This document shows, one piece after another, positions 10,715 to 28,146 of a stretch of 64,000 nucleotides of DNA. The DNA is from a virus, in the IMG/VR virus record IMGVR_UViG_3300045988_181003, positions 336,902 to 400,901 of that record; one strand, written 5' to 3'. The notes beneath the pieces are model-generated. The model had not been told where the DNA came from. It did not search any database and saw only the letters and a program-made list of their open reading frames with translations. A program made the position numbers and the translations under genes. The first letter of the stretch is position 1, and the number at the start of each line of letters is the position of its first letter.

Positions 10715-11171
10715 AAAAGATAGAACGATAAAAATTATGACTCCGGATGGAGAGAAAACGATTAGATTCATGTCTGGTCGGGAAGCAGGAGACGAAGAAC
10801 ATTTTAGTTTTTGTCAAGAAAATTGCAAATATGCTAACTGTTGTGAAAATCTTCCAAATCCAGATTTAAATACACCGGGTGATAATTTAATGGACTTTTG
10901 TATAGCTCAGGATAATAAGAATCCGTCTGATCAGGATACTCTTATGAACACTTATTATCCGGTGAATATAGAAAAATATATCCCTAATTTTATGGATAAA
11001 GTCTTAAAATCTGACCCTAGATTTTCATTAAACGATATTCATAGTACCATTTGTCGAGAATTTTGTTCTCTTTATTCAGAGGCTGGAATTACTGATGAAT
11101 GTAGTGAGAAAAATCCAATGTGTGTATTACAAGCATTATTAATTAGAAATAAAACCAAAAACGATGATTGA
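10680..11171 (+). CDS. hypothetical Cys-rich protein
   Basis: 163-codon ORF with multiple Cys clusters (CQENCKYANCCEN). Confidence 0.4.
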   Translation: MIQILYYIMASKKDRTIKIMTPDGEKTIRFMSGREAGDEEHFSFCQENCKYANCCENLPNPDLNTPGDNLMDFCIAQDNKNPSDQDTLMNTYYPVNIEKYIPNFMDKVLKSDPRFSLNDIHSTICREFCSLYSEAGITDECSEKNPMCVLQALLIRNKTKNDD

Positions 11172-12480
11172 ACTGATAGGGAAACATGGAAAGGACTGCA
11201 AAATATATGTGGATGATCCAGAAGAAGATGTTATTCAGTTTCTATATAAAGTGTTAGATAATGACATCTCACAAGATATTCCAATTAGAGTAATGCCAGA
11301 TTGTCATTCTGGAACTGGGTGTATAGTTGGTCTTACATTACCAACTGAGACAAAAGTAAATCCAGAGTACATAGGTTGTGATATTGGCTGTGGGGTAGTT
11401 ACATTTATATCTAAAACTGCTATTCCAGATTCACCAGATTTAGCTAAGGTAAATTATAAAATTCGCAATCTTATACCAATGGGTATGGAAATAAATGAAA
11501 AACCTATAGTAGATGAGAAAGAATTTTATAGATATCTTCGGACAGAATACTCTAAAGCTAGGTCAGCCTGGCCAGAGGTAATTCCAGATGTTGGTGAAAT
11601 CGGAGAGAAATATCTGAGAGATATGCTCCGTAGATTAGGAATGGATCAAGGTGTATTTTATAAATCACTTGGTACATTAGGTGGAGGTAATCATTTTATC
11701 GAAGTCTCAGAAACTCCAGATAAAAATTGGGCTCTTACTGTTCACTGTGGTTCCAGAAATTTTGGAATTAAGGTGTGGAAGTATTGGTCTAAGATTGGAA
11801 AATCTATGAGAAAAGATGAAAAACGATTGAAACCTCTAGAAGCAGAGATTCGAGCTAAATATAGTGGACCAGAGATAGAAAGAAGAATAAAAATCCTTAG
11901 ACTTGATCCAGTATATAACCTAAGATCACCTAATGGATTTTTAGAAGGGTCTGATATGTCAGGATATCTTAGTGACATGTGTATAGCTCAGGCATATGCA
12001 TCTTATAACAGATACTTGATAATTAAAAGAATAACCTCAGCACTTCGGTGGAAAGAGGTAGAAAGAATAGAATCAGTTCATAATTATCTAGACTTCACAG
12101 ATCATATCCTTAGGAAAGGGTCAATTAGATCTTATCAGAACGAAAAACTAATTATTCCCTTGAATATGGCTGATGGAATTTTAGTATGTAGAGGAAAATC
12201 TAATCCAGATTGGAATTATAGTGCACCTCATGGAGCTGGTCGAAAGTTTTCCAGAAGTGCAGCTAAGAAAAATATAACTCTTGATTCCTTTAAAGAAAGA
12301 ATGACAGGTGTATTCTCAACATCAGTTTGTAAAGAAACTATAGATGAATCACCAATGGCATATAAGGACTCAGAACTAATTGAATCCTTAATTGAGCCAA
12401 CTGTCGAAGTTCTATATAAGATGAAACCTATTATCAATTTAAAATCAGCCAATATCTTAGATAAAAATGAAGAAGATTAA
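11164..12480 (+). CDS. rtcB: RtcB-family RNA 3'-phosphate/2',3'-cyclic phosphate ligase
   Basis: RtcB signature motifs: MPDCHSGTG, DIGCGV, GGGNHFIEV, HNY, APHGAGR. Confidence 0.85.
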   Translation: MIELIGKHGKDCKIYVDDPEEDVIQFLYKVLDNDISQDIPIRVMPDCHSGTGCIVGLTLPTETKVNPEYIGCDIGCGVVTFISKTAIPDSPDLAKVNYKIRNLIPMGMEINEKPIVDEKEFYRYLRTEYSKARSAWPEVIPDVGEIGEKYLRDMLRRLGMDQGVFYKSLGTLGGGNHFIEVSETPDKNWALTVHCGSRNFGIKVWKYWSKIGKSMRKDEKRLKPLEAEIRAKYSGPEIERRIKILRLDPVYNLRSPNGFLEGSDMSGYLSDMCIAQAYASYNRYLIIKRITSALRWKEVERIESVHNYLDFTDHILRKGSIRSYQNEKLIIPLNMADGILVCRGKSNPDWNYSAPHGAGRKFSRSAAKKNITLDSFKERMTGVFSTSVCKETIDESPMAYKDSELIESLIEPTVEVLYKMKPIINLKSANILDKNEED

Positions 12481-12676: not shown

Positions 12677-13175
12677 TAGTGTAACATGTTTTCTTAGAAA
12701 AGTAACTAAGGAAGCAATCTTAGAATTATTGGAATTGGGATATACAACTGATAAATATCCACTTGATGAAAACCTACAGAATAACAAAGAATTTGGAATA
12801 GCAACTTCAGTTTGTGGAACTTTTTCAATTATTAGAGTTGAGCTTTTCGATTCCAAAGATCCTCATACTACATGGAATTGTGCGGGTCGTATTGATTGTA
12901 AAGATAATGCAGAATTATTCTTATCACTATGTTCGATTAAGGATGATACTGACAAAGGATCATTATTCTGTTTACCTACATCTTTAATGAAAGATCAAGA
13001 TGGAATTCTTATGAAAGATCTTTGGAGAATTAGTTTTATCAAATGTCAATATGATACTTGGGAAGAACAATGTAGGTTTTGTGAAGAAAATAATATTAAG
13101 TTAAAAACTAAAAATCCAGCTCGTGACTTTCATAAAGCAACAGTATCGGATTTATTATTAAAATATGAGTTATGA
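12669..13175 (+). CDS. hypothetical protein
   Basis: 168-codon ORF. Confidence 0.4.
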   Translation: MFNSVTCFLRKVTKEAILELLELGYTTDKYPLDENLQNNKEFGIATSVCGTFSIIRVELFDSKDPHTTWNCAGRIDCKDNAELFLSLCSIKDDTDKGSLFCLPTSLMKDQDGILMKDLWRISFIKCQYDTWEEQCRFCEENNIKLKTKNPARDFHKATVSDLLLKYEL

Positions 13176-13396
13176 TAGGTTCAGTAATAGCAGCAATAGC
13201 AAATGAACTGGGTAAATATCCAGATATTGATTCTCAAAAGAAAGTATTAGAGTCATTCCTAGAAGTTTTAGGAGAGGTTTATGAAGTATCAACTATGTTA
13301 ATCATGATAGATAAGATGAAATCTTTAAATGATTTTCTAAAATTTTCTGAGATTTTAAATTATAAGGCAGAGATTCTTAAACAGTTTGATTTTTAA
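13172..13396 (+). CDS. hypothetical protein
   Basis: 74-codon ORF with ATGA start/stop overlap with upstream gene. Confidence 0.35.
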   Translation: MIGSVIAAIANELGKYPDIDSQKKVLESFLEVLGEVYEVSTMLIMIDKMKSLNDFLKFSEILNYKAEILKQFDF

Positions 13397-13600
13397 TGAA
13401 CTGATATAATCGCCTGAAAGCCTTATATATGTATGAAAATAAAGAAAAATAAAATTATGAAAGATAAATTTAAGCAGTTGGAATGGAAATATCGATTGAA
13501 ATTCCTCCCGAAGTAATATTCGGGGTTTTCTACTTAGAATAGTCATATAGATAAATGATTATTTTAGGTAGAAAACAGGATTAAATTTCAGAATTTTATA

Positions 13601-13640
13601 AAATAAAAAAGCGTGGCTTAGTGCCACGCTAATTTTTTTG
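13601..13640. terminator. bidirectional rho-independent terminator at convergent junction
   Basis: A-run, hairpin gcgtggcTTAGTgccacgc, T-run. Confidence 0.7.
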
Positions 13641-13644
13641 TTCT

Positions 13645-13917
13645 TTAAAGCATAAAAATTAATACTAAAGAAATCAGAATTCCTCCTAAGAATCCACCTA
13701 TTGTTGTTATACAACAATTAGGCCATTCACAACTGTTTCTATATAGTATTTCTTTATACTTTAAAAGTAGGATCGTAGTAATTGCACATATGAGGTGTCC
13801 TAATAATGTATCAATTAATATTGCAATTATTCCTATGATAATTCCACCAATTAGGTGTTTACTGAAGTTACCAGTATATATCCAATTGAAGAATTTTTTA
13901 AACCTATTACTAATCAT
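13645..13917 (-). CDS. small two-helix membrane protein (holin-like topology, unproven)
   Basis: 90 codons, two long hydrophobic segments. Confidence 0.4.
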   Translation of the reverse strand: MISNRFKKFFNWIYTGNFSKHLIGGIIIGIIAILIDTLLGHLICAITTILLLKYKEILYRNSCEWPNCCITTIGGFLGGILISLVLIFML

Positions 13918-13920
13918 GGT

Positions 13921-14020
13921 AATATCAGTTTTATAAAGCGGTTCTCCTACTACGTCCTATTCGTTCGTGCCCGCTGCGCTACTCACAAGGACTACGTAAC
14001 GGAGAACTAACGGCTGCGCC
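13921..14020 (-). other. GC-rich structured element immediately 3' of VR1 (candidate DGR homing hairpin/cruciform)
   Basis: about 100 nt of high GC in AT-rich genome; inverted repeats gttctcc/ggagaac and gtcc..tac/gta..ggac; direct repeat cgctgcgc x2; absent from the equivalent position of the paralogous VR2 locus. Confidence 0.4.
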
Positions 14021-16852
14021 TTACGCTAGCGCTACTTGTAGGGAGGCGGCAGAGTAGCGGGTCGAAGCCGACTGGGAGGGGTTGCCATACCAGGCACGAG
14101 CCGAAGCGGCACTCCAGTTAGCGTGACCTCTACCACGCATACTAGCACGGACCTTTGATCCCCGGGTGTTGAACCAGCCAGAAGCGTCATAGTTAACAGC
14201 ATACGAACAAGCTCCTGTCGTCATAGTACCGCCACCTTTGGCAGTTGGAACTGGAGTGTAGGGAAAATATTCTTTTACCCAACCTTCGCCATTTCTAATT
14301 CCAGTTCCTACTTTTTCATAGATATATTCGAAATCAAACTTAGATCCGTCTGTATTAGTAATTGCAGTTGTATAAGTCAGATCTTTTTGTCTAGTGCATA
14401 GATAAGCAGTAAATGGATTAACATATTTACTTCCATCTGTTGTCGGAGTTTCAACATCTACCACTACTTCACAACCAGCGTATCCATAATCAAATACATC
14501 TCCCCAAAAAACTTCTCCATCAATAACTGGAATCTGTAATACTACTTGAACTAGTACACTTGATTCCACTGCAGTAGCTGAATCTCTTGTAGTAAATCCC
14601 TTCACTTCTGTCTCTGGGTAAATTTTAACAAGTTTGGCGTTCATGTCTGGGCCGTCTAGGAGAGTAGCCGCTTTAGTAACATTAGTATACTTATAAGTCT
14701 CTTCATCCCAGTAAAATATAGTATCTGGTTGGATTCCACATTCTACTGCTAAGGATAATGCCATCTGTGATTCTAAGGTTCTTTCTTTTGGTGCTTCTCC
14801 ATTAGCTACTACAGTAACTCGTTTATCATTAGATATAGCTGCTGAAGCACTACTAGATGAATAATAATACAAACATATACCATCACTATTTTTCAGTCCC
14901 GTCGATGATGAGTTATAACCCTGAGACATGAGACTATAATAGTAAGTGCTAGATTCTGCATTTTCTCTTAATCTCATTCCAGTTACTGTTCCCCAGTTAC
15001 CAGCATTTACTCCAACATTACTACTAATTCCATGTCCCCAATAAGTTCCAAGATTATATGTTCCATATTTTACAAAATCAGCATATAATCTGCTCATCTT
15101 GTGGAAACACATTCCTTCAGAACAAGGTAATGGAGATGTAGTATTTTTATTCTTTGCTCTGGCTTTCTGCATAGTAGTAATAGCATTCTGATTATAGGTA
15201 GGATAAGCATAACCGGCTCTATTGAATATATCAAAATCTGGGTATTTAGATTTATCTAATCCATATCTAGGTAATGAATATCCAGCTGAACCAGCACCAG
15301 ATTTACAATAAATTGATCTTAATTTACTATTTATTTGAGTTGGTAAACCTGGACAACCACCAGTAGGATCAACTAGTTTTGCTAGAATTCCATCATAATA
15401 GGTTTCTTTCTCAAAGAAGGCAAATATCTCTTGTCCCCTTCTTCCTTTTTCTCCTCCTATTATCCATATCGGTTTAGTCCATCCACATACTATATCATAA
15501 CCTTTATCAATAGTCTCCCACGGTCTTCTACAATATACTTCAGTACCAGAGGCATTATATAAAGGAGTAGGTTTGGACAATCCAGCTCCACCATAAGTTG
15601 TCCACCATGTATTTGGGTCATATGATCCAGCAGCAAATGCTAAATTTTGTCCAGACGTATCAGTATAAAGTGCTACACTAGATGCGTTATACTGAGCTTC
15701 TGATATAACAACTGTAGGAGCCCATTGACCATTAGTAAATCTTAGCCAATTGTTTTTCTGTAATTCCCCAACTATTTTGGCTTTCTCACCATCACTAACA
15801 TCAATTAAGTAAAAACCTTTAGAATTAATTATTTTTAAACTTCCAGTCTCTTGAACATCAGCATCTGGTGATAAACCAGGTCTGTTCCATTCAGCATATT
15901 CTTTATACCCCAAAGATTCTTTCATCTCATTAGTTTTCCTAGAAGCTTCATCAAGTATTTCAGCATCTCTTCTAATCATTTCGGATGTTACTAATTTAAC
16001 AACAAAATCTATATCTTTGCGAGTGCTGTATCTTATATATTTAGTTCCTTCTGGGAGCTGTGAGTATGGAATAAATCTTTCAACGTTAGATTGATCTGAA
16101 TAAGGAATTATTTGAGCTATGAATGTATAGTTTTTATCATATGCATTCATTAATGAGTATTTTTCGCCAGCATCAGAAGTATAATACTTTAGTTTATTAC
16201 TATAAATACTAGTATTTTTGGGGACAAAGATAAAAGATGACGTAATATATTTATTAAGAGTATTTAATACAGTAGTACCATCACTTTGTAGTAAAGAATT
16301 AGTTGTTTTACAATTACTGTAGTCAACCTCAGAATATGCTCCTATCTCTGTCCACTCAAAAGATCCACTAGTTATTTCATCTCCTCGAAATTCATGCCAA
16401 AGACCTAAAGAATCTTTGAATTTTATTGTACATCCATCAGTTAGAGTTGCTATAGTTTCATAATCTACCACAGCAGTTGTTATATCTGGATAAGATTTTC
16501 CCATTAGCTGGGTAATATTTACAGAACTTTCATAGATACTTTTTCGTTCCTCATTTATTTCTGGAGTAGGAATTTTTACTAATCCATTTTCATCTGGACC
16601 ATATGTTACTCCTCGATAAATTATTTTAGAAATATTACCAGATGCATGGAATTCAATATATCCTGTTATTTTATTATCAGAACTTATCTCAGTTGCTGAG
16701 TATATTTTTTTTGTTTCTTTTACATAAAACAACATTCCAATCCAAGGATATGGTATTTCAGATATTTTTGCAATTGTATCTATAACAACTCTTAAGTCTA
16801 ATGGTTCATTATGTAATGAAGGAATTAGTGCTCCTTCTATATTTTCTAACAT
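14021..16852 (-). CDS. tail fibre / receptor-binding protein, DGR target 1 (C-terminal variable repeat)
   Basis: 943 codons; N-terminal approx. 60 aa shared with two other large fibre proteins; conserved central motifs (IVGELQKNNW, GYDIV.GW, LEGPDMNA, FEGIYEK); C-terminus ...MRGRGHANWSAASARAWYGNPSQSASTRYSAASLQVALA encoded by VR1. Confidence 0.8.
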   Translation of the reverse strand: MLENIEGALIPSLHNEPLDLRVVIDTIAKISEIPYPWIGMLFYVKETKKIYSATEISSDNKITGYIEFHASGNISKIIYRGVTYGPDENGLVKIPTPEINEERKSIYESSVNITQLMGKSYPDITTAVVDYETIATLTDGCTIKFKDSLGLWHEFRGDEITSGSFEWTEIGAYSEVDYSNCKTTNSLLQSDGTTVLNTLNKYITSSFIFVPKNTSIYSNKLKYYTSDAGEKYSLMNAYDKNYTFIAQIIPYSDQSNVERFIPYSQLPEGTKYIRYSTRKDIDFVVKLVTSEMIRRDAEILDEASRKTNEMKESLGYKEYAEWNRPGLSPDADVQETGSLKIINSKGFYLIDVSDGEKAKIVGELQKNNWLRFTNGQWAPTVVISEAQYNASSVALYTDTSGQNLAFAAGSYDPNTWWTTYGGAGLSKPTPLYNASGTEVYCRRPWETIDKGYDIVCGWTKPIWIIGGEKGRRGQEIFAFFEKETYYDGILAKLVDPTGGCPGLPTQINSKLRSIYCKSGAGSAGYSLPRYGLDKSKYPDFDIFNRAGYAYPTYNQNAITTMQKARAKNKNTTSPLPCSEGMCFHKMSRLYADFVKYGTYNLGTYWGHGISSNVGVNAGNWGTVTGMRLRENAESSTYYYSLMSQGYNSSSTGLKNSDGICLYYYSSSSASAAISNDKRVTVVANGEAPKERTLESQMALSLAVECGIQPDTIFYWDEETYKYTNVTKAATLLDGPDMNAKLVKIYPETEVKGFTTRDSATAVESSVLVQVVLQIPVIDGEVFWGDVFDYGYAGCEVVVDVETPTTDGSKYVNPFTAYLCTRQKDLTYTTAITNTDGSKFDFEYIYEKVGTGIRNGEGWVKEYFPYTPVPTAKGGGTMTTGACSYAVNYDASGWFNTRGSKVRASMRGRGHANWSAASARAWYGNPSQSASTRYSAASLQVALA
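14041..14130 (-). repeat. DGR variable repeat VR1
   Basis: approx. 90-nt match to TR (27931-28020); all 15 mismatches fall at TR adenines (coding strand), AAC codons in TR replaced by CAC/GCC/CCC/ACC/TAC etc.; 3' IMH-like gccgcctccc identical to TR. Confidence 0.85.
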
Positions 16853-16895
16853 TTTATTAAATTTATTAAAAAGTTTATTAAAGGTTCTCCATTTT

Positions 16896-19508
16896 TCACA
16901 CCAATGCTACTTGTAGGGACGCAGAATAGGCGCGGTACGAAAGTGACTGGGAGTTTGGGCTGAACCAGTAACGCGCCGAAGAGGTTTTCCAAGTAGAAGC
17001 ACCCCTACCACGCATAGAGGCTCTGATTTTCCGGCCTGCTACAGAAAACACAGTATCTCCGTAATTATCATAGTTAATTGAATATGCACAGGAACCAGTA
17101 TATAACGTTCCACCTTTGGTAACTGGAACAATTGAATATGGGAACAGATTTTTAGAGTATGCTTCACCATCTCTGATTCCTTCACCTATTTTCTCATAAA
17201 TTCCCTCAAATCCAAATCCACCACCAGATGTATATGAAGAATTCAAATACATTAATTTTTCTTGTGATGTACATAGATAGGCAATAAATGGGTTTGTATA
17301 TCTATGAATCCCACTAGATGTTGGTGTAACTACATCAACTACTACCTCAAGTCCTGCATAACCATAATCAAATATATCTCCCCAGAGCACCATACCATCA
17401 CACACTGGCCATTGTAATTTCATCTGACCCGTTACCGCCACTTTATTAGTAGTTCCCTTTTCATAAGGTTCACCTGAGAAATCTGTCCATTTAAATAAAC
17501 GAGCATTCATGTCTGGTCCTTCTAGGAGAGTATGTAAGTTGGGGATATTAGTATACTTATAAGTCTCTTCATCCCAAGTAAATTTTGTTTCTGGTTCAAT
17601 TTCTTTTTCTACTGCCCAAGATAAAGCCATTTGAGCTTCGAGTGTTCTACTTTTAGGATGTTCTAGATTTATCCAATAATTCCAGTTATATCCACTAGTA
17701 GATCCAGAAACTCCTGAAAAATTAGGATTATCTGCAAAAGTATGATGTAATAAATCTCCATTATTTATAGTAAATCTTATCCCACTTCCTCCTGAGCATT
17801 TATCCCAAGTGGTGGAATTGGGAGTTATATTTGAACTGATCCCTGGTCCCCACAAAGAATCTTGGTGAAGATCATATCGTAGATATTTAATATATCTAGA
17901 ATAAATATGACTCAATTTATGAAATCCCATTCCCTCACAAACTGGCATACTAGATTGAGTATCACCAATATTTCTTGCTCTGGCTGATGTCATAGTAGAT
18001 AATTGAGAAACATCTGTTTTTGGGTAGGCTCTATTTGTTCGCTGAATGTCAAAAATACTATTTTGACCAGCCGACATAGATCCACCGGTGTCTTTTATAT
18101 AGATACATCGTAAAGTATTCTTATAATAAGTTGGTAGATCTAAACAATACCCCGTTGGACTCACTTCTTTGCTTAAAAATCCATTATAATATGTTGGATT
18201 ACTGAAGAAACCAAATAAAGTATTCCCTGAGGAATCAAATTCTCCACCTAACATCCATATAGTTTTCTTCCACCCTATCACTATATCATAACCGAGATCT
18301 TTACTCTCCCAAGGTTTTCTAACATATACCTTAGCACCGGATATATTATATAAAGGCTGTTCAGCTTTATTATTTTTTAACCACCAATCAGTTGCATCAA
18401 AATTACCAACTGAATAAGCTAAATTTGTATGAGTTGGGTCAGCATATAGATCAACATTGGTTGCATCATAGTCTGAATCAGTTATAACAACCGTTGGTGC
18501 ATAACTACCGTCTGTGAATTTAAAGAGATTATTTTTCTGTAATTCACCAACTATCCTAACTCTATTTTTTCCAGAGGTATCCTGATGAATATGGACTAAA
18601 TATATTCCTTCTTCATTAGCAATTTCTCTATTCCCTACATTATAAGATGCTCTAGGTGATAGATTATTGGTTTTCCAAGAAGCAATTTCTTTATGTCCAA
18701 CTTGTTTATATGCCTCATCTACTTTTTCAGATAAATCAAGTATTTTTTCAGATAAATCTGCTTTAGCATTAAGAGAAAATATTTTAAGGGATAATGAATT
18801 ATATTTTTCATTATTATTTATAGAAAAATATACAGTTCCCTCAGGTCTATCAGATGGTTTTATTATTCTAGAATCTAATCCTGCTGTGCCGGATGTGAAT
18901 GCACTAATAAAATTATAATCTTTATCAAAATAAACTATTCTAGGGTCTGATGCACTAGTATAGGTTCGACAATAGATATAATCATTAGTTCCAATATGAA
19001 CAAAATAAGTTGAATGAAGGTCAGCTGATGTTGCATTATTCCCTGCTGAAGTATAAAATGTTCCAGTGTTATATTTAATATCACTATAACTTACCTCACA
19101 ATATTCACTAAAATTCAACCACTTAGTTCCATCCCAAAGATATTCTTGCCAACCAAGTGTAGAATCTTTATATTTTAAAATCAATCCATCTGAATAACCA
19201 TCAGCCGATTCATCATTATCAGCCTGAAATCGATAAGTCTCTACTCCACTAAGTCTAGTCATTGCAGTTGTTATTGTAACCTCTTCTGCATTTTGTAAAC
19301 CAGGCAGAGTATTATCATCATATACTGGATAAGGATATACAAGTTCTTCATCCCCAGACAAAGAAGATGGAAATAATTTCTCATAATTATTTAATTTCAT
19401 GATAATCTTATCTCCATCTTCACTTAATCTAGGAACTAAGTGTAATCCCTCCAGTACTTCCTGAGATACTTCTGATAGTTTCTCAATTGGAAATACAATA
19501 TATTTCAT
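16896..19508 (-). CDS. tail fibre / receptor-binding protein paralog, carries diverged variable repeat (VR2)
   Basis: 870 codons; shares central motifs and C-terminal RASMRGRG...SASLQVALV with the 943-aa paralog. Confidence 0.8.
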   Translation of the reverse strand: MKYIVFPIEKLSEVSQEVLEGLHLVPRLSEDGDKIIMKLNNYEKLFPSSLSGDEELVYPYPVYDDNTLPGLQNAEEVTITTAMTRLSGVETYRFQADNDESADGYSDGLILKYKDSTLGWQEYLWDGTKWLNFSEYCEVSYSDIKYNTGTFYTSAGNNATSADLHSTYFVHIGTNDYIYCRTYTSASDPRIVYFDKDYNFISAFTSGTAGLDSRIIKPSDRPEGTVYFSINNNEKYNSLSLKIFSLNAKADLSEKILDLSEKVDEAYKQVGHKEIASWKTNNLSPRASYNVGNREIANEEGIYLVHIHQDTSGKNRVRIVGELQKNNLFKFTDGSYAPTVVITDSDYDATNVDLYADPTHTNLAYSVGNFDATDWWLKNNKAEQPLYNISGAKVYVRKPWESKDLGYDIVIGWKKTIWMLGGEFDSSGNTLFGFFSNPTYYNGFLSKEVSPTGYCLDLPTYYKNTLRCIYIKDTGGSMSAGQNSIFDIQRTNRAYPKTDVSQLSTMTSARARNIGDTQSSMPVCEGMGFHKLSHIYSRYIKYLRYDLHQDSLWGPGISSNITPNSTTWDKCSGGSGIRFTINNGDLLHHTFADNPNFSGVSGSTSGYNWNYWINLEHPKSRTLEAQMALSWAVEKEIEPETKFTWDEETYKYTNIPNLHTLLEGPDMNARLFKWTDFSGEPYEKGTTNKVAVTGQMKLQWPVCDGMVLWGDIFDYGYAGLEVVVDVVTPTSSGIHRYTNPFIAYLCTSQEKLMYLNSSYTSGGGFGFEGIYEKIGEGIRDGEAYSKNLFPYSIVPVTKGGTLYTGSCAYSINYDNYGDTVFSVAGRKIRASMRGRGASTWKTSSARYWFSPNSQSLSYRAYSASLQVALV
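16911..17010 (-). repeat. diverged DGR variable repeat VR2 (possibly decayed or served by another TR)
   Basis: aligns codon-by-codon to TR; every TR AAC/AAT codon is substituted, but about a dozen additional non-adenine mismatches and 3 mismatches in the IMH-like 3' end. Confidence 0.55.
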
Positions 19509-19628
19509 ATTTTTAATAATTTATTATTTATAACTAGAAGGTTTTATTTTAGATTTTTCTAGTACTTTCTGCAAAATCTCGTTTAAGATTTCTCCAAAGA
19601 ATTCAAATAACATACTAATATTAGAAAA

Positions 19629-20918
19629 TTAGGTGGTTATTAATTCATTACAAAATTTATATTCCTCGCAATTAGAATTAAGATACTCTTTATACTTATT
19701 TCCACAGAATATCAGTCTACCTTGTTGTCTGTCAAGAATTTGACCAACTCTAAAGCTTGGAATATAACTATTCTTAATAGCAAAATTAACATAACCATGT
19801 AATCCTTCATATGGATCACTAGATGCAGCATGATAGGTAACAGTATAAGGCTTATCTCCCCCACTTGGTCTTTCACCAACAAACTTAAATGTGCATCCTT
19901 CTATTACAATGTTACTTGATAATGCAAGACCTCCTCCAATACACTTTGATAGGGCGTTATCCATTGTTTCATATTCACTAATAAAATGGATGTTGTAATA
20001 TTTATTAATATAACTCTCAACTACAGTACCAGGATCATCGTGTACTACATAGCAGCCATTGATATTGTGCAAAATAGCATCATGTAATTCATAACCACCT
20101 CCAGTAGAGCTACAACCGAATAAGTTACAATGCTCATTTATATCTACATTTGTTCCCGTATAATGTAATGTAATTTTTGAGTTGTTAAACCAATATCTGC
20201 AACCTCCACCAATAGGCAATTCATGACCTCTTAATTTATATTTGCTTTCAATCAGATCAAAAACTTCTTGGTTAAATAGATAATCCCCAAATTCCCAAAC
20301 AACATCTACATTTCCAGTTGTATATGCATCAATTAATTTGTTTAGTATTTCTTCTTGAGTATCCGCCGTTCTGATATATCTCTTTTGTAATTTACTCTCA
20401 AGTTTACTCTCTATAATTACACCATTTTTTATTGAGTTGGATATAACTTTGTTGGCAGCTATCACACTTTCTCTTCTGTGGGTAATCTTATAACATGATT
20501 CATAAGCGTAGTTATAGGATATAATCACCTTAACAATTTCACTTGGTACAATATATTCTCGTGTAACAACATTGTTAATACCTTTATCAGGTATGACATT
20601 TCCATTAACATCATAAGCGCATAAAAACTTAAATGTAGCTCTACCGCCTTCTGTTTCATTCAAGTCAGTTACAGCTATAATATCATTTTCATTTACTATT
20701 ACCTCTTGATATCTATAACTAGTAGCTGATACTCCTGAATATGTTCCGTTAGAATTATAAAATCCTATATTATTGTTATCTTTAGGATAAGTTATTTTTT
20801 CCTCTGACGATATAACTTCAAAGTTTTCATATACTTCTTCAAAATTATTATCTATTCCTTGTGCAATAGTACCCCATATTTTTGCATTATCTTTTGCTAT
20901 ATCAAATATCTTTTCCAT
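19629..20918 (-). CDS. hypothetical tail-associated protein
   Basis: 429 codons, Gly/Cys-rich C-terminal half, sits between fibre genes. Confidence 0.45.
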   Translation of the reverse strand: MEKIFDIAKDNAKIWGTIAQGIDNNFEEVYENFEVISSEEKITYPKDNNNIGFYNSNGTYSGVSATSYRYQEVIVNENDIIAVTDLNETEGGRATFKFLCAYDVNGNVIPDKGINNVVTREYIVPSEIVKVIISYNYAYESCYKITHRRESVIAANKVISNSIKNGVIIESKLESKLQKRYIRTADTQEEILNKLIDAYTTGNVDVVWEFGDYLFNQEVFDLIESKYKLRGHELPIGGGCRYWFNNSKITLHYTGTNVDINEHCNLFGCSSTGGGYELHDAILHNINGCYVVHDDPGTVVESYINKYYNIHFISEYETMDNALSKCIGGGLALSSNIVIEGCTFKFVGERPSGGDKPYTVTYHAASSDPYEGLHGYVNFAIKNSYIPSFRVGQILDRQQGRLIFCGNKYKEYLNSNCEEYKFCNELITT

Positions 20919-20919
20919 A

Positions 20920-23900
20920 CTAATCGTTCTTAATTAAAGTATTATTAGATATCGAAGTCTCATTATCAACCGAAGAGATAACTACATTTTTCTTAAATAG
21001 TTTATTCCCTAGATCAATAATTCCATCTTGTTCCATTAAGTTTCGTATCATTCCTATTGATAATGGATCAATTGTTTTGGACCACAACATTTCTTTGTAG
21101 AATACCATTTTTCGATAAACATTATTCCATTCACCAAATGCAATGCCTTTTGTATCAGTATTTGTACCAACTATAAGATTACTTCCATTATAGTTTGTTT
21201 TAGTACAATATTGGATTTCATCAGTACAGCTTAATGTATTAGCCTGACCAAAATTATATTGTTGAATAACAGTAGATGATGTAATATAACTCTGTATGAA
21301 TGCTCCCCCACCAGTTTTTAATGAACCTTTATGTTGAATAGCACTATAAATAGCAGGATCTCCTATATCTTTATATTTAATAATATATGTATAATCTGTA
21401 AACTCAGGGATATAATTACAATTAATATAATCATCAATACCATCAAGTACTAAACCACTAGGATATTCAGGCTGTATTTCAATCCTAACTCCTTCGGTAC
21501 TTTCATTATTAATCAAAGTTATATTCATACCAATCCAAACAGTAGCCGGAGTTTCCTCTTTCACTTGTATTGGAACACTGGCTGGGAGTTCATGTATACC
21601 ATTACTATTTATAGTAATAAAACTATTATTCGAGGTATTATCGGCGGATACATAATAATATCTTATTGATTCTCCAGTTTTTAAACCATTAACTTTTATA
21701 TTAAATGAAGGAATAGTAATACTATAACTACCATTAACATCATTAACATAACTGTAAAATAAAGCAAAAGTAGGATGTTCAACTTTATAAATAGTAATGC
21801 TGTTCGAAGTTAATCCATAACTCCATGCGTTACCATCATTTGTTCTTAAATTTATCCAGGTCTTATTAGCACCTAATACAACAGGATAACCCTTATATCC
21901 AGACATTCCCTCATAAGAGAAATTTACACATCTAAGATACATATTATCTTGACTAACCCCAGATTGTTTGCGAACCTGCTCTAAAATATTTACTCTAGAA
22001 TCTCCTTCATCATTAGTTTTGCCATATACATCCCAATAGTATTCTGGTTTTTCTACATATCCCTCCGATGTTCCTAACCATTCACATAGTATTTCTCTAT
22101 CAGAATTACTAGGTACTTCTGGGAGTACAACAGTTCGATACATAGCAAATTGTGAAAAATTACTTCCACCAACTGTTGAACCAAATACTGGAGATACTGT
22201 ATTACTACTGTTGTCAGTTTCACAGATCGTCTCAAATACATGAGTTTTTGCATATAGTTCTGCCGTAGTTATATATTTATTCAAAACTGAATCTATGTAA
22301 GTATATCCATCTTGATTTCTAGTTTGATAAGCTGGGAATTTAGATACTTCAGAATCACTTGGTATATAAACACAAAGTCCAGTATAACTTACAGTTTTTC
22401 TTTGATCGTATAAGACAGTTCCTTTTCTTTGCCAATTAGTTTTCATACCAAGATATTTTCCACCATAAGCAATATTCTCAACAGTTCCTCTATCATCCAC
22501 ACCATCAAAACAAAGTGCTCCAGTGTATTCAGGTTGAACTTCTATAGTAATGTTACAGTCATAATGTCCAATATTTTTTAAATCAACTGCACTAAATCCA
22601 ACCCATATATTTTCATCAGTTAAATTATCAGTTCCTGCATATGATTTAGGAAGTGTATAAGTCCCATCTTCGGATATCTGAATTGTCTGTTTTGTTGTAG
22701 AAGTTTCAGAATCAATATATGCATATCTAATTCCAAAATCTCCACTCAGTCCTCGTACTTTTACTTTAAAAGATGGGATCTCTTTATTATACTCAGTTAA
22801 AACTCCTTCTGATTTTATATAACTATGTAATAGTGCAATATTAAAACTTATTTTGGTTATACTAATATAATTACTGTGATATTCAGCCATAAATGATTCA
22901 CTATTGTTGGGTCTAATAGTTAACCAAGTTTTATTGGCTCCAAACACTACTGGGTAACCATCTTTTCCACTTATACCTTCATAGGTGAAATTATTGAGTT
23001 TAAGATGTCTCCCCTGACCAGTTAAATCCGGAAGATAGCCTAGGTTACTTAAACCAGTATTATTTATTATATCTGGGTCATACATAAATAAAGCTTCTGG
23101 TGTAGATAATTTCCATTTACATTTGACTGACCAGTTAAGTGTGTTATTTTTTTCTACAACTGCATATTTAATAGATTCATCTGAACCAAATCGATTTCCA
23201 TTAAAATATAATGCTCCTACTATTGTATAGAAATTTGATAATAGATTTTCAAAATTCAGGTATTTAATTCTACTTCCTATTTTTATCTTATCACCATAAG
23301 TATATTCATGAGTTCCATCTTCATTTTTAAAATGAATTACAGTTGGATATGGTTGAAGAATATCTTCATATCTGATATATTCATCAATTGTAATATCTAT
23401 TCTTTGTGGTGATCTAGTAACAGCTAATATAAATCTCCAGTATTGTGCATCAACATTTCCTTTAGTCATTTCCTCTCCATTAAGAGTGACTTTCGAGATT
23501 TCATCGGTTTCATTAGTTGTAGCAATATTAATCTGAACTCTAGTTCCAATTGGTATATAATCACCAACTAGAATTGGATTACCAGTAGAAACATTAAAAT
23601 ATAGAATTCTTTTGTATGGAATATTACTTTCTACTATAGGTTTCCACTGAATCATCCCCGGATATAATGTTCCAAGTTTAAGCTTCTTCAGTTGTCGTTC
23701 TATCAAGAACTCAGACATTGAATATGGATATAGCAAGAAAGACCAGATAGCAACTTTAGAAAATCTTGTATCATTATCTCTTAGAGTTCCCATCCACATT
23801 GAACTTTGATCTATACCGCTTCCTAATGTTAAATTAGCTGAATAATTGTATTGATATTTTGTTTGTACAACAATTCCTCTTTCCGTTATTTTCGAATTTG

Positions 23901-25746
23901 ATATGTTAGTGTTATTTTTACCAAATGTCCAAGTTTGGATAATTCCATCTGTAGGAGACTGGCTTTGTTCTAAGATGAATGCTCCTTGATCACCAGTGGC
24001 TGCTTTTGAAACAATACCTCCACTGTCTATCATAAAATTCAAAAATTTTCTATCAGCCACCACAGTATAGTCCTTCAAAACAGGAAGACCAGTTGTCTTG
24101 CCGAAATCATCAACCCCATTCAAGCATAGGGTGTTCTCTATGTCATCAATAGGAAGTACTGTAACCTTAACATTAACACTTTCGTTATATTTACTTATAC
24201 ACCAACCACTATAAGCTGCTTCTTCAGTTTGCGGAGTAGCAGGAATGTCGTATATACCATCTTCTAATATATCTACATAAGTAGTTACAGAAGCAGTAGT
24301 ATTTATTCTCCATTTAAGATTTCCTTCTGTAATAGTAGAAACACCTTCAATCTTAACTTTATAAGTAGGTAAAACTTTATTTTTAGTATTAACTTCTAAT
24401 AAATTAGCAGTACTAGTATTAGAAGTAATAATGAAATTGTCTTTATTTACTATTACATTACCTCTATCAGGAAGATAAGTGTAATCTTTAAAACTAATAG
24501 GATAATTACCTATACCACTTTGTTTCTCCCAAGCAATATTGTTCAATTGCATATCATATCCATGACCAGATAAATCTACTAATTTATCACTAAAATCAGA
24601 GTGATTATCATTGGTAATTCCTTGTTGGGATATATTATAATATACCTGAGGAGTTATACATCGATCTAGGTTATAATATTCTATTATAAGATGTATTTCA
24701 TTCTCTGTCAGTACTCTATCAGCAATAATTGTCCAATACCAGGCTACTTGTGATAATTCTGCCAGATTACCATTTGATGAATTCTTATAACCAACTACAC
24801 TATAAATGTCGTTAGTCTGATGTGTTCCACCTTGAGAAACATAATCTTCTTTATCACCAAGAAGTTTTACAGAATTAGGAACAGTTGGTGAAACTTTTAG
24901 ATTAGGACAAGTGTATCCATATATCCCCGTTTTTCCAGTATTTCCTTTTGCTACAATATTTCTGGTACACATTAATGATGAATTATATCTGATATTATTT
25001 ATAGAATTACTAAAAGATTCTCCTTCTATATCAGATATTTGAGTAATCATTGATATGACAGTTACTTTTCCACTGTTTCCTATAATTGAATCTAGAGTTT
25101 TATCTGAATAAATAAAATCATCTATACCATCTGTTACTAATGCACAAGGATAGTCTGGATTGCCATATCCAGAATTGGGTGTATATGAAAACCCTGATAA
25201 TACTAGATTATTTCCATTTCCAGATATGTCTGATATAATATCTCTATCTGAATCTTGATTTGTCTTTCCAAATGCAGTACAAACCATTTTGATAGAGTTT
25301 TTAAGATCACTAGATAAAGTTTTTCCTAAAAAATCTCTAAGATCATTTTCAGCTGTATAGAAATTATTATATAGTTTTCCCTCTTTTTCTTTAGTTATAT
25401 TTATCTTTTGAGAATTTCTTAATTCTTTAGACTCATAAATATATCTAGAATCATCTGGTATAGTAATTACATTAGAATCAGTAACTTTAATTATCTCATC
25501 ATTGATTGTAACTGATTCTGCTCCAACTGAAGTAAACAATTCATAATCTTTAACTCCACTTAAATCATCAGTTAAAGAAGTAATTGTATAATAATAACCT
25601 GTATCAAGACAATAAAATATTCCACCGATATCTGGATTTAGAATAGTATTTACCTCTGATAAGGTTTGTATTCTATCTCGAACATCTAGCGGCTGATTAT
25701 TTTGTAACTCAATACCACTAGATGTTATAATTTGTTTATTACTCAT
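20920..25746 (-). CDS. very large tail fibre / structural protein with internally repeated domains
   Basis: 1608 codons; N-terminus homologous to N-termini of the 943- and 909-aa fibre proteins; repeated modules (GYPVV.GANKTW..., IE.QPEY...LDG.DD). Confidence 0.7.
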   Translation of the reverse strand: MSNKQIITSSGIELQNNQPLDVRDRIQTLSEVNTILNPDIGGIFYCLDTGYYYTITSLTDDLSGVKDYELFTSVGAESVTINDEIIKVTDSNVITIPDDSRYIYESKELRNSQKINITKEKEGKLYNNFYTAENDLRDFLGKTLSSDLKNSIKMVCTAFGKTNQDSDRDIISDISGNGNNLVLSGFSYTPNSGYGNPDYPCALVTDGIDDFIYSDKTLDSIIGNSGKVTVISMITQISDIEGESFSNSINNIRYNSSLMCTRNIVAKGNTGKTGIYGYTCPNLKVSPTVPNSVKLLGDKEDYVSQGGTHQTNDIYSVVGYKNSSNGNLAELSQVAWYWTIIADRVLTENEIHLIIEYYNLDRCITPQVYYNISQQGITNDNHSDFSDKLVDLSGHGYDMQLNNIAWEKQSGIGNYPISFKDYTYLPDRGNVIVNKDNFIITSNTSTANLLEVNTKNKVLPTYKVKIEGVSTITEGNLKWRINTTASVTTYVDILEDGIYDIPATPQTEEAAYSGWCISKYNESVNVKVTVLPIDDIENTLCLNGVDDFGKTTGLPVLKDYTVVADRKFLNFMIDSGGIVSKAATGDQGAFILEQSQSPTDGIIQTWTFGKNNTNISNSKITERGIVVQTKYQYNYSANLTLGSGIDQSSMWMGTLRDNDTRFSKVAIWSFLLYPYSMSEFLIERQLKKLKLGTLYPGMIQWKPIVESNIPYKRILYFNVSTGNPILVGDYIPIGTRVQINIATTNETDEISKVTLNGEEMTKGNVDAQYWRFILAVTRSPQRIDITIDEYIRYEDILQPYPTVIHFKNEDGTHEYTYGDKIKIGSRIKYLNFENLLSNFYTIVGALYFNGNRFGSDESIKYAVVEKNNTLNWSVKCKWKLSTPEALFMYDPDIINNTGLSNLGYLPDLTGQGRHLKLNNFTYEGISGKDGYPVVFGANKTWLTIRPNNSESFMAEYHSNYISITKISFNIALLHSYIKSEGVLTEYNKEIPSFKVKVRGLSGDFGIRYAYIDSETSTTKQTIQISEDGTYTLPKSYAGTDNLTDENIWVGFSAVDLKNIGHYDCNITIEVQPEYTGALCFDGVDDRGTVENIAYGGKYLGMKTNWQRKGTVLYDQRKTVSYTGLCVYIPSDSEVSKFPAYQTRNQDGYTYIDSVLNKYITTAELYAKTHVFETICETDNSSNTVSPVFGSTVGGSNFSQFAMYRTVVLPEVPSNSDREILCEWLGTSEGYVEKPEYYWDVYGKTNDEGDSRVNILEQVRKQSGVSQDNMYLRCVNFSYEGMSGYKGYPVVLGANKTWINLRTNDGNAWSYGLTSNSITIYKVEHPTFALFYSYVNDVNGSYSITIPSFNIKVNGLKTGESIRYYYVSADNTSNNSFITINSNGIHELPASVPIQVKEETPATVWIGMNITLINNESTEGVRIEIQPEYPSGLVLDGIDDYINCNYIPEFTDYTYIIKYKDIGDPAIYSAIQHKGSLKTGGGAFIQSYITSSTVIQQYNFGQANTLSCTDEIQYCTKTNYNGSNLIVGTNTDTKGIAFGEWNNVYRKMVFYKEMLWSKTIDPLSIGMIRNLMEQDGIIDLGNKLFKKNVVISSVDNETSISNNTLIKND

Positions 25747-26224
25747 CTCCCTTCCATCCTATTTCTTTTAATCCAGCTTTAACCCATTTAACAAAAGTAT
25801 CATGAGCTGTAATTTCTGGATCACTTGGATCTGTGAATCTTTTTCTATTAATAGCTTCTATTTCTCCATCTTCAGCAGAAAACTCTTGACGGATAGCTGC
25901 GTTAATTAATCTACCATAGGTAACAGGTTTTTTGCAAACAATTGAATAAGCATAGTCAATCTCCTTTTCATGACTAACTGGATTTTCTTCATCTAGAATT
26001 TCACTAGTTGTAATAGTTTCTCTAGTATGTTTTATAAAAACTTGTTTAGAAGAACCAAGATCAATTTCCACTACCTTATCATCTAAAAATTTAACTAATT
26101 TAAGATCTTTTTCACTCCAATTTTCTTTGATTGTTTCTGGAGTATCTATTGGCTGCATTGCCAAATCTTGAATACTTTTAATCATGATTTTAAATATTTT
26201 CGTTATTATTAATACTTGAATCAC
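25739..26224 (-). CDS. hypothetical protein immediately 3' of DGR reverse transcriptase (possible accessory factor; not Avd-like)
   Basis: 161 codons overlapping RT 3' end by 35 nt; acidic, so unlike basic Avd. Confidence 0.45.
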   Translation of the reverse strand: MIQVLIITKIFKIMIKSIQDLAMQPIDTPETIKENWSEKDLKLVKFLDDKVVEIDLGSSKQVFIKHTRETITTSEILDEENPVSHEKEIDYAYSIVCKKPVTYGRLINAAIRQEFSAEDGEIEAINRKRFTDPSDPEITAHDTFVKWVKAGLKEIGWKGDE

Positions 26225-27719
26225 TATCTTTATAATATCCCAAAGAGTTATTAGTTAATGTTGGGAAATATTTAGATAGTTCACTCTCTTGTACTTCTTC
26301 TAAGTATTCAACAGAGTCTTTAAAAATTATACCACCATCATCCTCAAGAACTAAGTGTTCTAGTGGAAAATATGTTTTCTGACGTTCTTCAAAACTGATA
26401 CCCATTTGTTTTGCTTCGAATGCTATCTGTTTATCAAGTTTAGATAGAAATTCGAATATATATTTATATCCACCCTTAACTTTAAATACTTTGTAGGTTG
26501 GATATTCTGGTTTAAATGGATTAGCTACTGGTTTAGAAACTTTTATTCCTAAAATCATACATACCCAAGGACTAGATTTTTTATCTGGTTCTCTTAATTC
26601 ATAACTAATTAGTATCAATTCTTTTCCAAGAACTGCTTTCACGTCTTTGCATGGAACGTTTACTGTTCCCTCTCTAACTTTTAGAGTCTTTGCAATATTT
26701 CTAAAGTCCAAATCTTTAATATTATTTGTTAATACTTTCCAGAGATTTATAGTATCAGCATGACAAATTAATCCAAAATATGATGCCATAGATTCTCTAG
26801 ATTTTTCTATTCTCTTTTTTGCTCTTTTCTTCAATGTTTTTCTAACTGTGGTATATCCTTTTCCATGATGATTTTTAGTTTGTTCTGATCTATGAAAAAC
26901 ATAACCACCTATGTCTACTGGAACTCGAACTGGACATAATTTAATATTTTTCTTAAGTCTATATTGAAGTTCCCTCTTAAGATATATTTTTACAAACTCC
27001 AGAACTTTTTTGGCTCCTTCTTTTGTCTTACAACCAATAAATACATCATCTGCATATCTATGATAGCTCACTACATCTGGAAATTTTTCTAAGATTAAGT
27101 GATCAAACTCAAGCATAATGATATGATGATTAGTTGGACTGAGTGGTGTTCCAATTGGTAATCCTTTATTACACATTGAGACTTTTCTAAGATGTTTTAA
27201 AAGAAGAGGATCTTTGAATAATCTTTCATGTGCTTTCCACATTACTTCTGGTTTTGTCGATCCATAACAATTTTTTATGTCTAACTTTAAATACCACTGC
27301 ATTTCATGTTTTTCATAAAAATCATGTTTTAATTTATGGACCATTGAATATCTCTTATTACTGGATGTTATTCCTCGCCCAGGTATACAATTATATACAT
27401 TGTCTACAATATACTTCTCAAATCTGGGTCGAATCAAGAGGAGTATAACATGCATCACAATTCTCCATTCTAACGAACAACAAGATATTTGTCTAACTTT
27501 ACCAGTAAATGATACTTTTGTTAATGGCGAATAAACTATTGAATGTTTAAGGTAGAATTCTGATTTTATTCTATCATAGATAATATCTACATTATGTTGT
27601 AGGTTTTTCTTAAAATTAATTACATCTCTATGATGAATTTTAGATTTTAAAGCATTAAGTGTTGCTTGGAGTACTAAATCTTTAGTTATAGTACACCATA
27701 AGTTTCCCTGTCTTTTCAT
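26190..27719 (-). CDS. DGR reverse transcriptase with approx. 180-aa C-terminal extension
   Basis: YADD catalytic motif (SYHRYADDVFIGC), GLPIGTPLSP motif-4 (bRT-like GLPIG), GRG motif, basic thumb; located just 3' of an AAC-rich template repeat that matches VR1. Confidence 0.85.
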   Translation of the reverse strand: MKRQGNLWCTITKDLVLQATLNALKSKIHHRDVINFKKNLQHNVDIIYDRIKSEFYLKHSIVYSPLTKVSFTGKVRQISCCSLEWRIVMHVILLLIRPRFEKYIVDNVYNCIPGRGITSSNKRYSMVHKLKHDFYEKHEMQWYLKLDIKNCYGSTKPEVMWKAHERLFKDPLLLKHLRKVSMCNKGLPIGTPLSPTNHHIIMLEFDHLILEKFPDVVSYHRYADDVFIGCKTKEGAKKVLEFVKIYLKRELQYRLKKNIKLCPVRVPVDIGGYVFHRSEQTKNHHGKGYTTVRKTLKKRAKKRIEKSRESMASYFGLICHADTINLWKVLTNNIKDLDFRNIAKTLKVREGTVNVPCKDVKAVLGKELILISYELREPDKKSSPWVCMILGIKVSKPVANPFKPEYPTYKVFKVKGGYKYIFEFLSKLDKQIAFEAKQMGISFEERQKTYFPLEHLVLEDDGGIIFKDSVEYLEEVQESELSKYFPTLTNNSLGYYKDSDSSINNNENI

Positions 27720-27930
27720 TTGTCCTAATCATTTATTTTTTTTTTCGACCAGGCTGTCTCAGCTTTCGAAATGATTTCTCATCCTACTAACAAAGATCCG
27801 TATCTCGCCTTTTTATATATACGGAGTGTCTTGATATTTTTTGGAACTTCCCCAAGGTTTACCTGGTGTTTCTCTCACCATCCACGGCTCGAAAGTCTGA
27901 ATGGATTTAGAAAATCAACAGGTCATAAAA
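27720..27930 (-). ncRNA. non-coding spacer between TR and RT start (candidate DGR RNA spacer/priming region)
   Basis: 210 nt without ORF between TR 3' end and RT start codon, same strand; by analogy with Bordetella DGR RNA where the spacer primes cDNA synthesis. Confidence 0.3.
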
Positions 27931-28020
27931 GGGAGGCGGCATAGTTGCGGTTCGAATTCGACTGGGAGTTGTTGCCATTCCAGTTACGAGCCGAATCGTT
28001 ACTCCAGTTAGCGTTACCTC
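27931..28020 (-). repeat. DGR template repeat (TR)
   Basis: non-coding (in-frame stop) repeat; sense strand encodes ...GNANWSNDSARNWNGNNSQSNSNRNYAASL with 9 AAC/AAT codons; VR1 differs only at these adenines. Confidence 0.85.
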
Positions 28021-28059
28021 AAAACCAAGTAAACCTATTCTAAATATTTCTATTTAGTT

Positions 28060-28097
28060 GTTATATCTGTTCCCAGATCGTAATGTCTGGATATAAC
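28060..28097 (-). terminator. bulged hairpin between 909-aa fibre gene and TR
   Basis: gttatatc...ccagaTCGTAATGtctgg...gatataac stem-loop; could terminate the fibre transcript or mark 5' end of DGR RNA. Confidence 0.35.
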
Positions 28098-28146
28098 TGT
28101 TTTATGACAGTAATTTTCAAAGAGAAGCTACTGTATTGTCATAAAT

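Follow-up and report, generated by a model that had tools for sequence, protein, structure and literature searches.

How a diversity-generating retroelement (DGR) directs its cDNA to a variable repeat (VR) and replaces it is the least understood step of the DGR mechanism, and the sole cis requirement defined besides the initiation of mutagenic homing (IMH) sequence is the BPP-1 hairpin, the only form for which annotation tools search. This question is raised by a 64,000-nt stretch of virus DNA (IMG/VR record IMGVR_UViG_3300045988_181003, positions 336,902 to 400,901; hereafter the window, W), in which a putative tail fibre gene with an active VR (VR1) is followed by a GC-rich segment that is missing beside the degenerate VR (VR2) of the neighboring paralog. 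We refer to this segment of 73 nt (GGCGCAGCCGTTAGTTCTCCGTTACGTAGTCCTTGTGAGTAGCGCAGCGGGCACGAACGAATAGGACGTAGTA, 13948-14020; 56% GC vs 31% for the window) as the module. Every feature discussed lies on the minus strand of the window unless otherwise indicated, and the related contigs that were compared are designated by L-numbers. The comparisons make it reasonably probable that the module is a DGR target-site cis element, and we hold with moderate confidence that it is the version of the target-site hairpin used by its clade, of a different structural type from that of BPP-1. We are less confident that the active part consists of two short heptamers rather than of a long inverted repeat.

The window encodes a reverse transcriptase (RT) of 509 aa with a YADD motif (26190-27719; RVT_1, E = 1.7e-20), whose best database match, at 30% identity, is the RT of csAssE-Sib (OR575929.1), a 151-kb gut phage. 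The template repeat (TR, 27931-28020) lies about 210 nt upstream of the RT gene and 14 kb from VR1, between the RT gene and a third fibre paralog (28147-30876) without a VR. VR1 belongs to a gene of 943 aa (14021-16852), the homologue of which in csAssE-Sib is annotated as a putative tail fiber protein; its TR-homologous part (14041-14130) ends in a GC-rich IMH-like run, GCCGCCTCCC (14041-14050). In the five genomes in which VR1 was compared with the genome's own TR (the window, L074, L075, L076, and L080, all with an identical TR), 11 to 17 of the 25 TR adenines were changed and no other base, with one G exception in L080, and the VR1 sequence differed in every sample. VR2, carried by the upstream paralog (870 aa, 16896-19508), mismatched the TR at 14 non-adenine positions and had lost 3 nt of the terminal GC run (GCCGCCTCCC to GCGTCCC); its sequence was identical in the window, L002/L074, and L075-L080. 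Since VR1 has adenine-only changes and varies between samples, whereas VR2 has non-adenine mismatches and a GC-run deletion and is static, VR1 is live and VR2 is dead, as the original prediction, made from the window alone, had proposed. An RT with a YxDD motif beside a TR and an adenine-only, population-variable VR, both found here, identify the system as a DGR. Beyond the common GC run, we detected neither identity nor complementarity of the module with the TR flanks or spacer.

The sequences 3' of the two VRs were then read directly. The VR1 gene ends in ...SAASLQVALA followed by TAA (14021-14023), the module, GGAGAACC (13947-13940), 22 AT-rich nt, and the ATG (13917) of a co-oriented gene for a hydrophobic, membrane-like protein of 90 aa (13645-13917). 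The upstream paralog ends in ...SASLQVALV, and its stop codon TGA (16896-16898) is followed by AAAAT, by GGAGAACC (16883-16890), and then by TTTAATAAAC; the module is absent from this degenerate VR2 end (16883-17005). The GC-rich segment described between the VR1 stop codon and the flank is thus real, measuring 73 nt at VR1, where VR2 has the 5 nt AAAAT. The downstream flank said to be common to both paralogs is exactly shared only over GGAGAACC and diverges afterwards, into CGCTTTATAAAAC at VR1 and TTTAATAAAC at VR2. Across strains the module was conserved but for two single-base substitutions, 13961 A>G and, in L075, 13974 G>T, and the 64-kb window contained no second copy of the 73-mer.

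The module accompanied active VRs throughout the related genomes, as had been predicted for a segment tied to a retargetable VR. It was present at 16 of 16 intact VRs with a readable flank, namely, those of the downstream paralog in the window, L001-L006, L075, L076, L080, and L012, those of the upstream paralog in L001, L003, L004, and L006, and that of L014; L074 is the same contig as L002 and was counted once. It was absent from nine of nine degenerate VR2 copies (W, L002, L005, and L075-L080), eight of which are identical to each other. At the upstream paralog, the contigs are of two types. In L001, L003, L004, and L006 this gene (871 aa) has an intact VR that is sample-variable at the TR-adenine positions, and identical 73 nt precede GGAGAACC; in W, L002/L074, L005, and L075-L080 the VR of the orthologous gene is degenerate and the module is missing. 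Adenine specificity in the L001-type contigs was judged against the TR of the window, with 2 to 3 constant non-adenine differences attributed to TR divergence; a search for the L001-type TR by way of the exact RT protein returned only contigs of the window clade. In L014 (3001-4130), a mosaic fibre gene combines a VR2-like body with an intact VR, the module, and the 90-aa gene, which suggests recombination between the tandem paralogs.

The difference between the paralogs had been described as an insert at VR1. Relatives of the fibre C terminus were collected from Logan (L011), IMG/VR (L013 and L036-L069), and JGI/ENA metagenomes (L014-L021) and by way of the RT (L083-L162). The 3' flanks of their VRs are homologous to parts of the module, at a distance at which the proteins are about 30 to 40% identical and the TRs cannot be aligned. 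In the L016-type phages, CGCTAGTGGCGAAAGCGCAGCCGTGAGT corresponds to CGCTAGCG--TAAGGCGCAGCCGTTAGT of the window and encodes there the protein tail ..NASGESAAVSE*, and GAGTGAAACGAACAT corresponds to GAGT..ACGAACGAAT; L013 has TAGCGCAGCGACGAAAT for TAGCGCAGCGGGCACGAACGAAT of the window, csAssE-Sib-type phages have AGCGCAGCGCTAAGGCGCAGCCTTA for AGCGCTAGCGTAAGGCGCAGCCGTTA, and csAssE-Sib itself has GCGCTAAGGCGCAGCCTTA for AGCGTAAGGCGCAGCCGTTA. Because the VR flanks of such distant relatives are homologous to it, the module is most likely older than the paralogs and was lost at VR2, rather than gained at VR1, which reverses the direction of change first proposed.

The same homology bears on the idea that a mobile element, MITE-like (miniature inverted-repeat transposable element) or other repeat, landed beside VR1 by chance. 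The presence/absence difference between the paralogs would fit such an event, as would the sequences GTTCTCC and GGAGAAC, which look like inverted termini. The right "terminus," however, is already present at the empty VR2 site, no target-site duplication was found, other copies are lacking in the 64 kb, and no exact match occurs in 185,579 GTDB genomes. A chance insertion is therefore extremely improbable, and a MITE or dispersed repeat was rejected as a candidate, given the single locus, the right arm at the empty site, and the lack of a GTDB match.

We next considered which part of the module is conserved. The original prediction had listed a duplicated cgctgcgc; the duplicate is real, and is indeed the conserved feature, but comprises 7 nt rather than 8 (GCTGCGC on the plus strand, at 13973-13979 and 14013-14019), reading GCGCAGC on the sense strand. 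The 64-kb window contains two GCGCAGC heptamers on both strands together, with about 0.6 expected, and both are in the module on the sense strand. The heptamer was defined independently from relatives, and at least two copies arose in shuffled versions of the module with P = 1.5e-5, so that this feature is beyond chance. Copy A lies in the mini-hairpin GGC-GCA-GCC (14012-14020; heptamer 14013-14019), which is present in the DNA minimum-free-energy fold, starts 20 nt past the last TR-homologous base, and is homologous to TAAGGCGCAGCC of csAssE-Sib-like phages and to AAAGCGCAGCCGTGAGT of L016-type phages. Copy B (13973-13979), in the context AGTAGCGCAGCGGGCACGAACGAAT, matches TAGCGCAGCGACGAAAT of L013 and is located in the apical loop of a long imperfect inverted repeat. 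A degenerate third unit, AGCGCtAGCG (14024-14033), is embedded in the final codons of the VR1 gene. Its counterpart in the csAssE-Sib array is AGCGCAGCGCT, and the direct repeat AGTAGCGC gives evidence of it. Across the related loci, GCGCAGC occurred from -17 to +90 nt relative to the stop codon of the VR gene and never in antisense, with two unrelated occurrences elsewhere.

The heptamer is a characterized structure. The oligonucleotide d(gcGCAgc) forms an exceptionally stable DNA mini-hairpin, with a Tm of 67-71 C from only two stem pairs; such stability is peculiar to GNA triloops, the C:G loop-closing pair being worth 2 to 3 kcal/mol, and is documented for DNA (PMC3201870; PMC13037366). 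The phage G4 origin and N4 promoters employ mini-hairpins of the GNA type as recognition elements, and such hairpins also cause polymerases to pause (PMC13037366). Both window copies conform to the d(GCGNAGC) sequence, GC-GNA-GC with a C:G loop-closing pair.

In more distant phages, the loop was retained while the stems changed: relatives carry one to six sense-strand GCA-triloop hairpins with differing stems. The array 3' of the VR gene of csAssE-Sib consists of AACC-GCA-GGTT, ATGGGT-GCA-ACCCAT, TGATGGC-GCA-GCCATCA, AGC-GCA-GCG, TAAGGC-GCA-GCCTTA, and ACGGC-GCA-GCCGT, and its DNA fold had a z-score of -3.86. Among csAssE-Sib-like phages (L094-L162, e.g., L124, L107, L103, and L149), the GCGCAGC units numbered from 2 to at least 6 and lay about 20 to 130 nt past the VR-gene stop codon, unit number changing by gain or loss of 13- to 15-nt units such as GGCGCAGCGATAA. 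Within the csAssE-Sib group we observed compensatory variants (AACC..GGTT vs GCC..GGC; TGGGT-GCA-ACCCA vs GAGGGG-TTGCA-CCCCTC), and in one variant the loop was changed from GCA to GTA, which is still GNA. Two RT-related lineages with verified adenine-specific VRs carry such hairpins as well: AGC-GCA-GCT and AATGGGAT-GCA-ATCCCATT in L083, and AAC-GCA-GTT, TTCCGAT-GCA-ATCGGAA, and GGGAT-GCA-ATCCC in L084. The distance from the end of the TR homology to the start of the first GCA hairpin is 13 to 20 nt in four lineages, with the window at 20 nt. In csAssE-Sib, the GC-rich array is directly followed by a perfect 16-bp AT-rich palindrome, TATAGCTACAAAACAA...TTGTTTTGTAGCTATA (L070, 5085-5130), which is probably the real terminator, the GC-rich hairpins being a separate element.

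This enrichment was quantified in an unselected census that took in all GCA triplets of the 130-nt flanks, read on the sense strand, in six lineages. Of 22 such triplets, 11 were enclosed by a perfect stem of 3 bp or more, compared to 33 of the 1975 in the rest of these sequences (Fisher p = 9e-14), and control triplets in the same census showed no stem enrichment. Permutation of the 3' arms gave 45.9 +/- 5.9 pairs, compared to 83 observed, a value that none of 5000 shuffles reached (p < 2e-4); without csAssE-Sib, 53 pairs were observed, compared to 30.9 +/- 5.1. No GCA hairpins were found after the VRs of the crAss-like phages cr55_1 and cr10_1 and of Bacteroides phage BT-TP2, and the feature is therefore clade-specific rather than general.

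The original prediction had instead emphasized a Bordetella-type hairpin or cruciform built from the pairing of gttctcc with ggagaac plus inner pairs, an explanation in which the heptamers are incidental. The repeat itself exists: GTTCTCC (14001-14007) and GGAGAAC (13941-13947) form 7-bp arms, within which TACGT/ACGTA and CCT/AGG pairs are nested (13941-14007; GTTCTCC..TACGT..CCT / AGG..ACGTA..GGAGAAC, 7 + 5 + 3 bp), and this structure dominates the predicted DNA fold. Its pairing is within chance expectation and lacks comparative support. When the 81-mer was shuffled, 9.7% of the resulting sequences contained a perfect inverted repeat of at least 7 bp and 8.8% contained a repeated 7-mer; the folding check that had been proposed gave energies no better than those of dinucleotide shuffles, with z-scores of -0.2 for RNA and, for DNA, of +0.76 (126 nt) and -0.44 (86-nt core). 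Since shuffles match its energy and so often hold such a repeat, the generic inverted-repeat hairpin is not beyond chance, unlike the heptamer. Moreover, the 7-bp arms are separated by 53 nt, the right arm GGAGAAC is also found at VR2 without a partner arm or VR activity, and the arms show no sequence variation by which pairing could be judged. In its favor, the 3' arm is placed where L016-type phages have a covarying 7-bp hairpin, and at the corresponding site of L011 there is a significant inverted repeat of 13 bp that encloses a 40-nt loop (z = -3.33). Weighing these points, we regard the long repeat as an improbable basis for the function of the module.

A Bordetella-type hairpin is defined closely enough for direct comparison. 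The BPP-1 element has a GC-rich stem of 7 to 10 bp and a 4-nt GRNA loop on the sense strand, lies 4 to 34 bp past the VR, and is needed for efficient retrohoming, its stems being variable and its loop conserved (Guo et al. 2011, PLoS Genet 7:e1002414, PMC3240598); the tool myDGR implements this form exactly. The module is similarly GC-rich and located just 3' of the IMH beside functional VRs, with its first element at +20 nt and thus within the 4- to 34-bp range. In both elements the stem varies and the sense-strand loop is conserved, and the loop begins with G and ends with A (GNA here, GRNA there), consistent with a sheared G.A pair. In contrast, the loop here is the trinucleotide GCA, the stems measure 2 to 3 bp in the window and 3 to 8 bp in relatives, and the copies are tandem and number at least two (in csAssE-like phages, as many as six or more), compared to one in BPP-1. 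Within 150 nt of the VR, we found no compact hairpin with a stem of at least 4 bp and no GRNA-tetraloop hairpin, so that the long repeat fails the Guo 2011 and myDGR stem and loop definitions, no Bordetella-type hairpin is present in the flank, and the myDGR rule would miss the module. In the respects examined, the module thus appears to resemble the BPP-1 element without being a member by the published definition, and the functional idea of the original prediction was probably right in kind and wrong in detail.

Two other known systems are instructive. With the d(GCGNAGC)/d(GCGNNAGC) mini-hairpin DNA of Hirao and colleagues (PMC13037366; PMC3201870), the module shares the exact GCGCAGC and the C:G closing pair. 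In nature that sequence is known to form recognition hairpins from phage DNA in the single-stranded or supercoiled state (at the G4 origin and the N4 early promoters) and to pause polymerases; the known cases concern replication priming or transcription initiation, in which they differ from the present one. In the searchable literature we found nothing that links DGRs or retrohoming to triloops or to the GCGCAGC heptamer. The target hairpins of group IIC introns, discussed by Guo et al. (2011), likewise show retroelement machinery using a DNA stem-loop beside its homing or insertion site. Those, however, are terminator hairpins with a U-run, recognized in single-stranded DNA, that serve self-insertion, whereas here there is no U-run and the site would be marked for sequence replacement only.

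Since the hairpins are confined to the sense strand and directly follow the stop codon, with a co-oriented gene lying 24 nt downstream, they could also act at the RNA level, as a 3' stabilizer, processing site, or attenuator of the fibre mRNA before the 90-aa gene, unrelated to retrohoming. The G.T in one covarying pair of the L016/L044/L046 hairpin would agree with this. A U-run is absent, however, and csAssE-Sib has its AT-rich palindrome separately after the array. The RNA fold z-score given above and an Rfam scan of 13000-29000, which returned nothing relevant, likewise offer no support, and the stability of GNA triloops with C:G closure is documented for DNA. A role in the mRNA would, moreover, leave the tracking of VR activity across paralogs unexplained. 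We therefore consider an RNA element very unlikely. An intrinsic terminator, which together with a MITE had been named as a generic alternative, was rejected: the terminator scan of 13918-14023 was empty, and the only minus-strand terminator-like site, a canonical bidirectional terminator, is located at 13610-13630, past the 90-aa gene.

Several observations weigh against the module as a target-site element. The loss of the module is confounded with the 3-nt GC-run deletion and with last-codon substitutions in VR2; because the same copies have the damaged GC run, the death of VR2 cannot be assigned to the module as opposed to the IMH. All degenerate copies have the same junction, and the co-occurrence therefore probably reflects a single loss event. 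In the window, the compact stem has no more than 3 bp in copy A and 2 bp in copy B, and the predicted fold of the whole module is no better than that of shuffled sequence. Heptamer mutations are tolerated: heptamer B reads GCGCATC in L075, and yet L075 VR1 is diversified, and L044, L045, and L048 have GCGCATC instead of the heptamer, with VRs that still differ between contigs. A GCA hairpin is lacking in L011, whose homologue is 40% identical and has a VR; this contig carries instead the 13-bp inverted repeat described above. In L016-type phages the heptamer lies inside coding sequence, and there is a separate 7-bp hairpin, AGGGAGG-CTCGT-CCTCCCT, with a 5-nt loop, one base pair of which covaries (A-T, G.T, and G-C) across L016, L044, and L046; this hairpin may be the functional structure of those phages. 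The long inverted repeat of the window could then be the counterpart, in this phage, of the structures in L016 and L011, and its contribution and that of the heptamers are not separable. Finally, part of the module is homologous to the L016-type coding tail, so that some of its conservation could be historical.

Alternatively, the module may be a relic or hitchhiker without a role of its own, the remainder of a longer ancestral C-terminal tail and 3' flank that moved with the GC-rich VR block by duplication or gene conversion, VR2 having died of IMH damage and lost its flank in the same event. Besides the tolerated heptamer mutations, the altered VR2 GC run, and the nonsignificant fold z-scores, this explanation is favored by the alignment of the window TAA with the GAA codon of the L016-type tail (..NASGESAAVSE*) and of the next 15 nt with coding sequence. 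The coding tail, however, accounts for the first ~28 nt of the homology and not for the hairpin arrays, the strand bias, or the stem covariation. The motif is kept at about 85% DNA identity between lineages with unalignable TRs and VRs and about 30% identical proteins; it is exclusively on the sense strand; in csAssE-Sib, L083, and L084 it is noncoding, with differing stems, a constant loop, and compensatory changes; and it is present in 4 to 6 copies in csAssE-like phages. We therefore regard a relic as rather unlikely, though it is the most probable of the alternatives.

Returning to the target-site element, its mode of action may be envisaged as follows. Once supercoiling, transcription, or replication opens the duplex, compact GCA hairpins would form on the sense strand, possibly joined by the longer imperfect stem GTTCTCC...GGAGAAC. 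The hairpins, which we infer to form in vivo and to be needed for homing, would mark the 3' boundary of the VR as competent to receive adenine-mutagenized cDNA made on the TR. Upon loss of the module, as at VR2 in this strain, a VR would no longer be refreshed from the TR and would decay by ordinary mutation.

Database searches and the surroundings of the locus yielded further observations. Nucleotide searches of a phage collection with the window locus and with an L016-type locus (L026) gave no match, nor did a single-protein scan of IMG/VR, and word-indexed protein searches gave only two matches and one match, respectively. The GTDB genomes were scanned with a protein profile and with an exact 32-mer of the module without a match, so that no host or prophage copy is known. 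Contigs that encode the same 90-aa and 429-aa proteins in the same gene order (L001, L003, and L076) are metagenomic contigs of 300 to 405 kb, and the window thus derives from a very large phage-like element. Contigs L008 (1-78), L009 (1-75), L010 (1-53), and L012 (7380-7407) break inside the module, either ~55 or ~77 nt away from the final variable base of the VR; a biological origin of these ends was rejected, since the spacing is that of de Bruijn assembly k-mer geometry at a hypervariable site.

Around the DGR itself, an AT-rich hairpin, ATGACAATACAGTA..TACTGTCAT, follows the third fibre paralog just before the TR (28040-28146, minus strand). A 161-aa open reading frame (ORF) after the RT gene (25739-26224, minus strand) had no Pfam match, and no Avd-like accessory gene was identified. 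Near the fibre genes, the window also carries a gene for an RtcB-type RNA ligase (11164-12480, plus strand), which in L005 and L007 (7440-9016) is split into ORFs of 292 aa and 178 aa about 160 nt apart. Some related DGRs have been rearranged. In L019 (3001-3948) and L145 (5588-5943), the fibre gene runs into the TR (asparagine-rich, with TR-type codons and an IMH*-type end) and the entire VR-hairpin-TR interval is missing; these look like "collapsed" DGRs produced by VR/TR recombination. In the csAssE-Sib-like L053 (3801-4605), the TR matches the VR over 67 of 111 nt and abuts an ORF with HNH_3 and NUMOD4 domains, which suggests the insertion of a homing endonuclease gene into or beside the TR.

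Taken further, and more tentatively, the comparisons raise the possibility that a clade of gut-phage DGRs, to which this phage, the csAssE-Sib group, and the lineages of L083 and L084 belong, takes its target signal from GNA-triloop mini-hairpins in tandem on the sense strand and not from a GRNA-tetraloop cruciform, copy number (from 1 to at least 6) tuning, and loss switching off, the diversification of individual receptor-binding genes. The target signal of a DGR could then be much smaller than the BPP-1 hairpin, a strand-asymmetric GNA-triloop mini-hairpin that is often arrayed, which would point to recognition of a single-stranded DNA structure rather than of a cruciform. Such single-strand hairpins could stall a polymerase or exclude single-stranded DNA-binding protein right after the IMH. 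A sequence criterion would also become available to separate live from dead VRs in metagenomes, for which the natural presence/absence polymorphism at the upstream fibre paralog is ready material. The mini-hairpin would amount to a portable "diversify here" tag of about 10 nt, minimal and transplantable for DGR-directed evolution.

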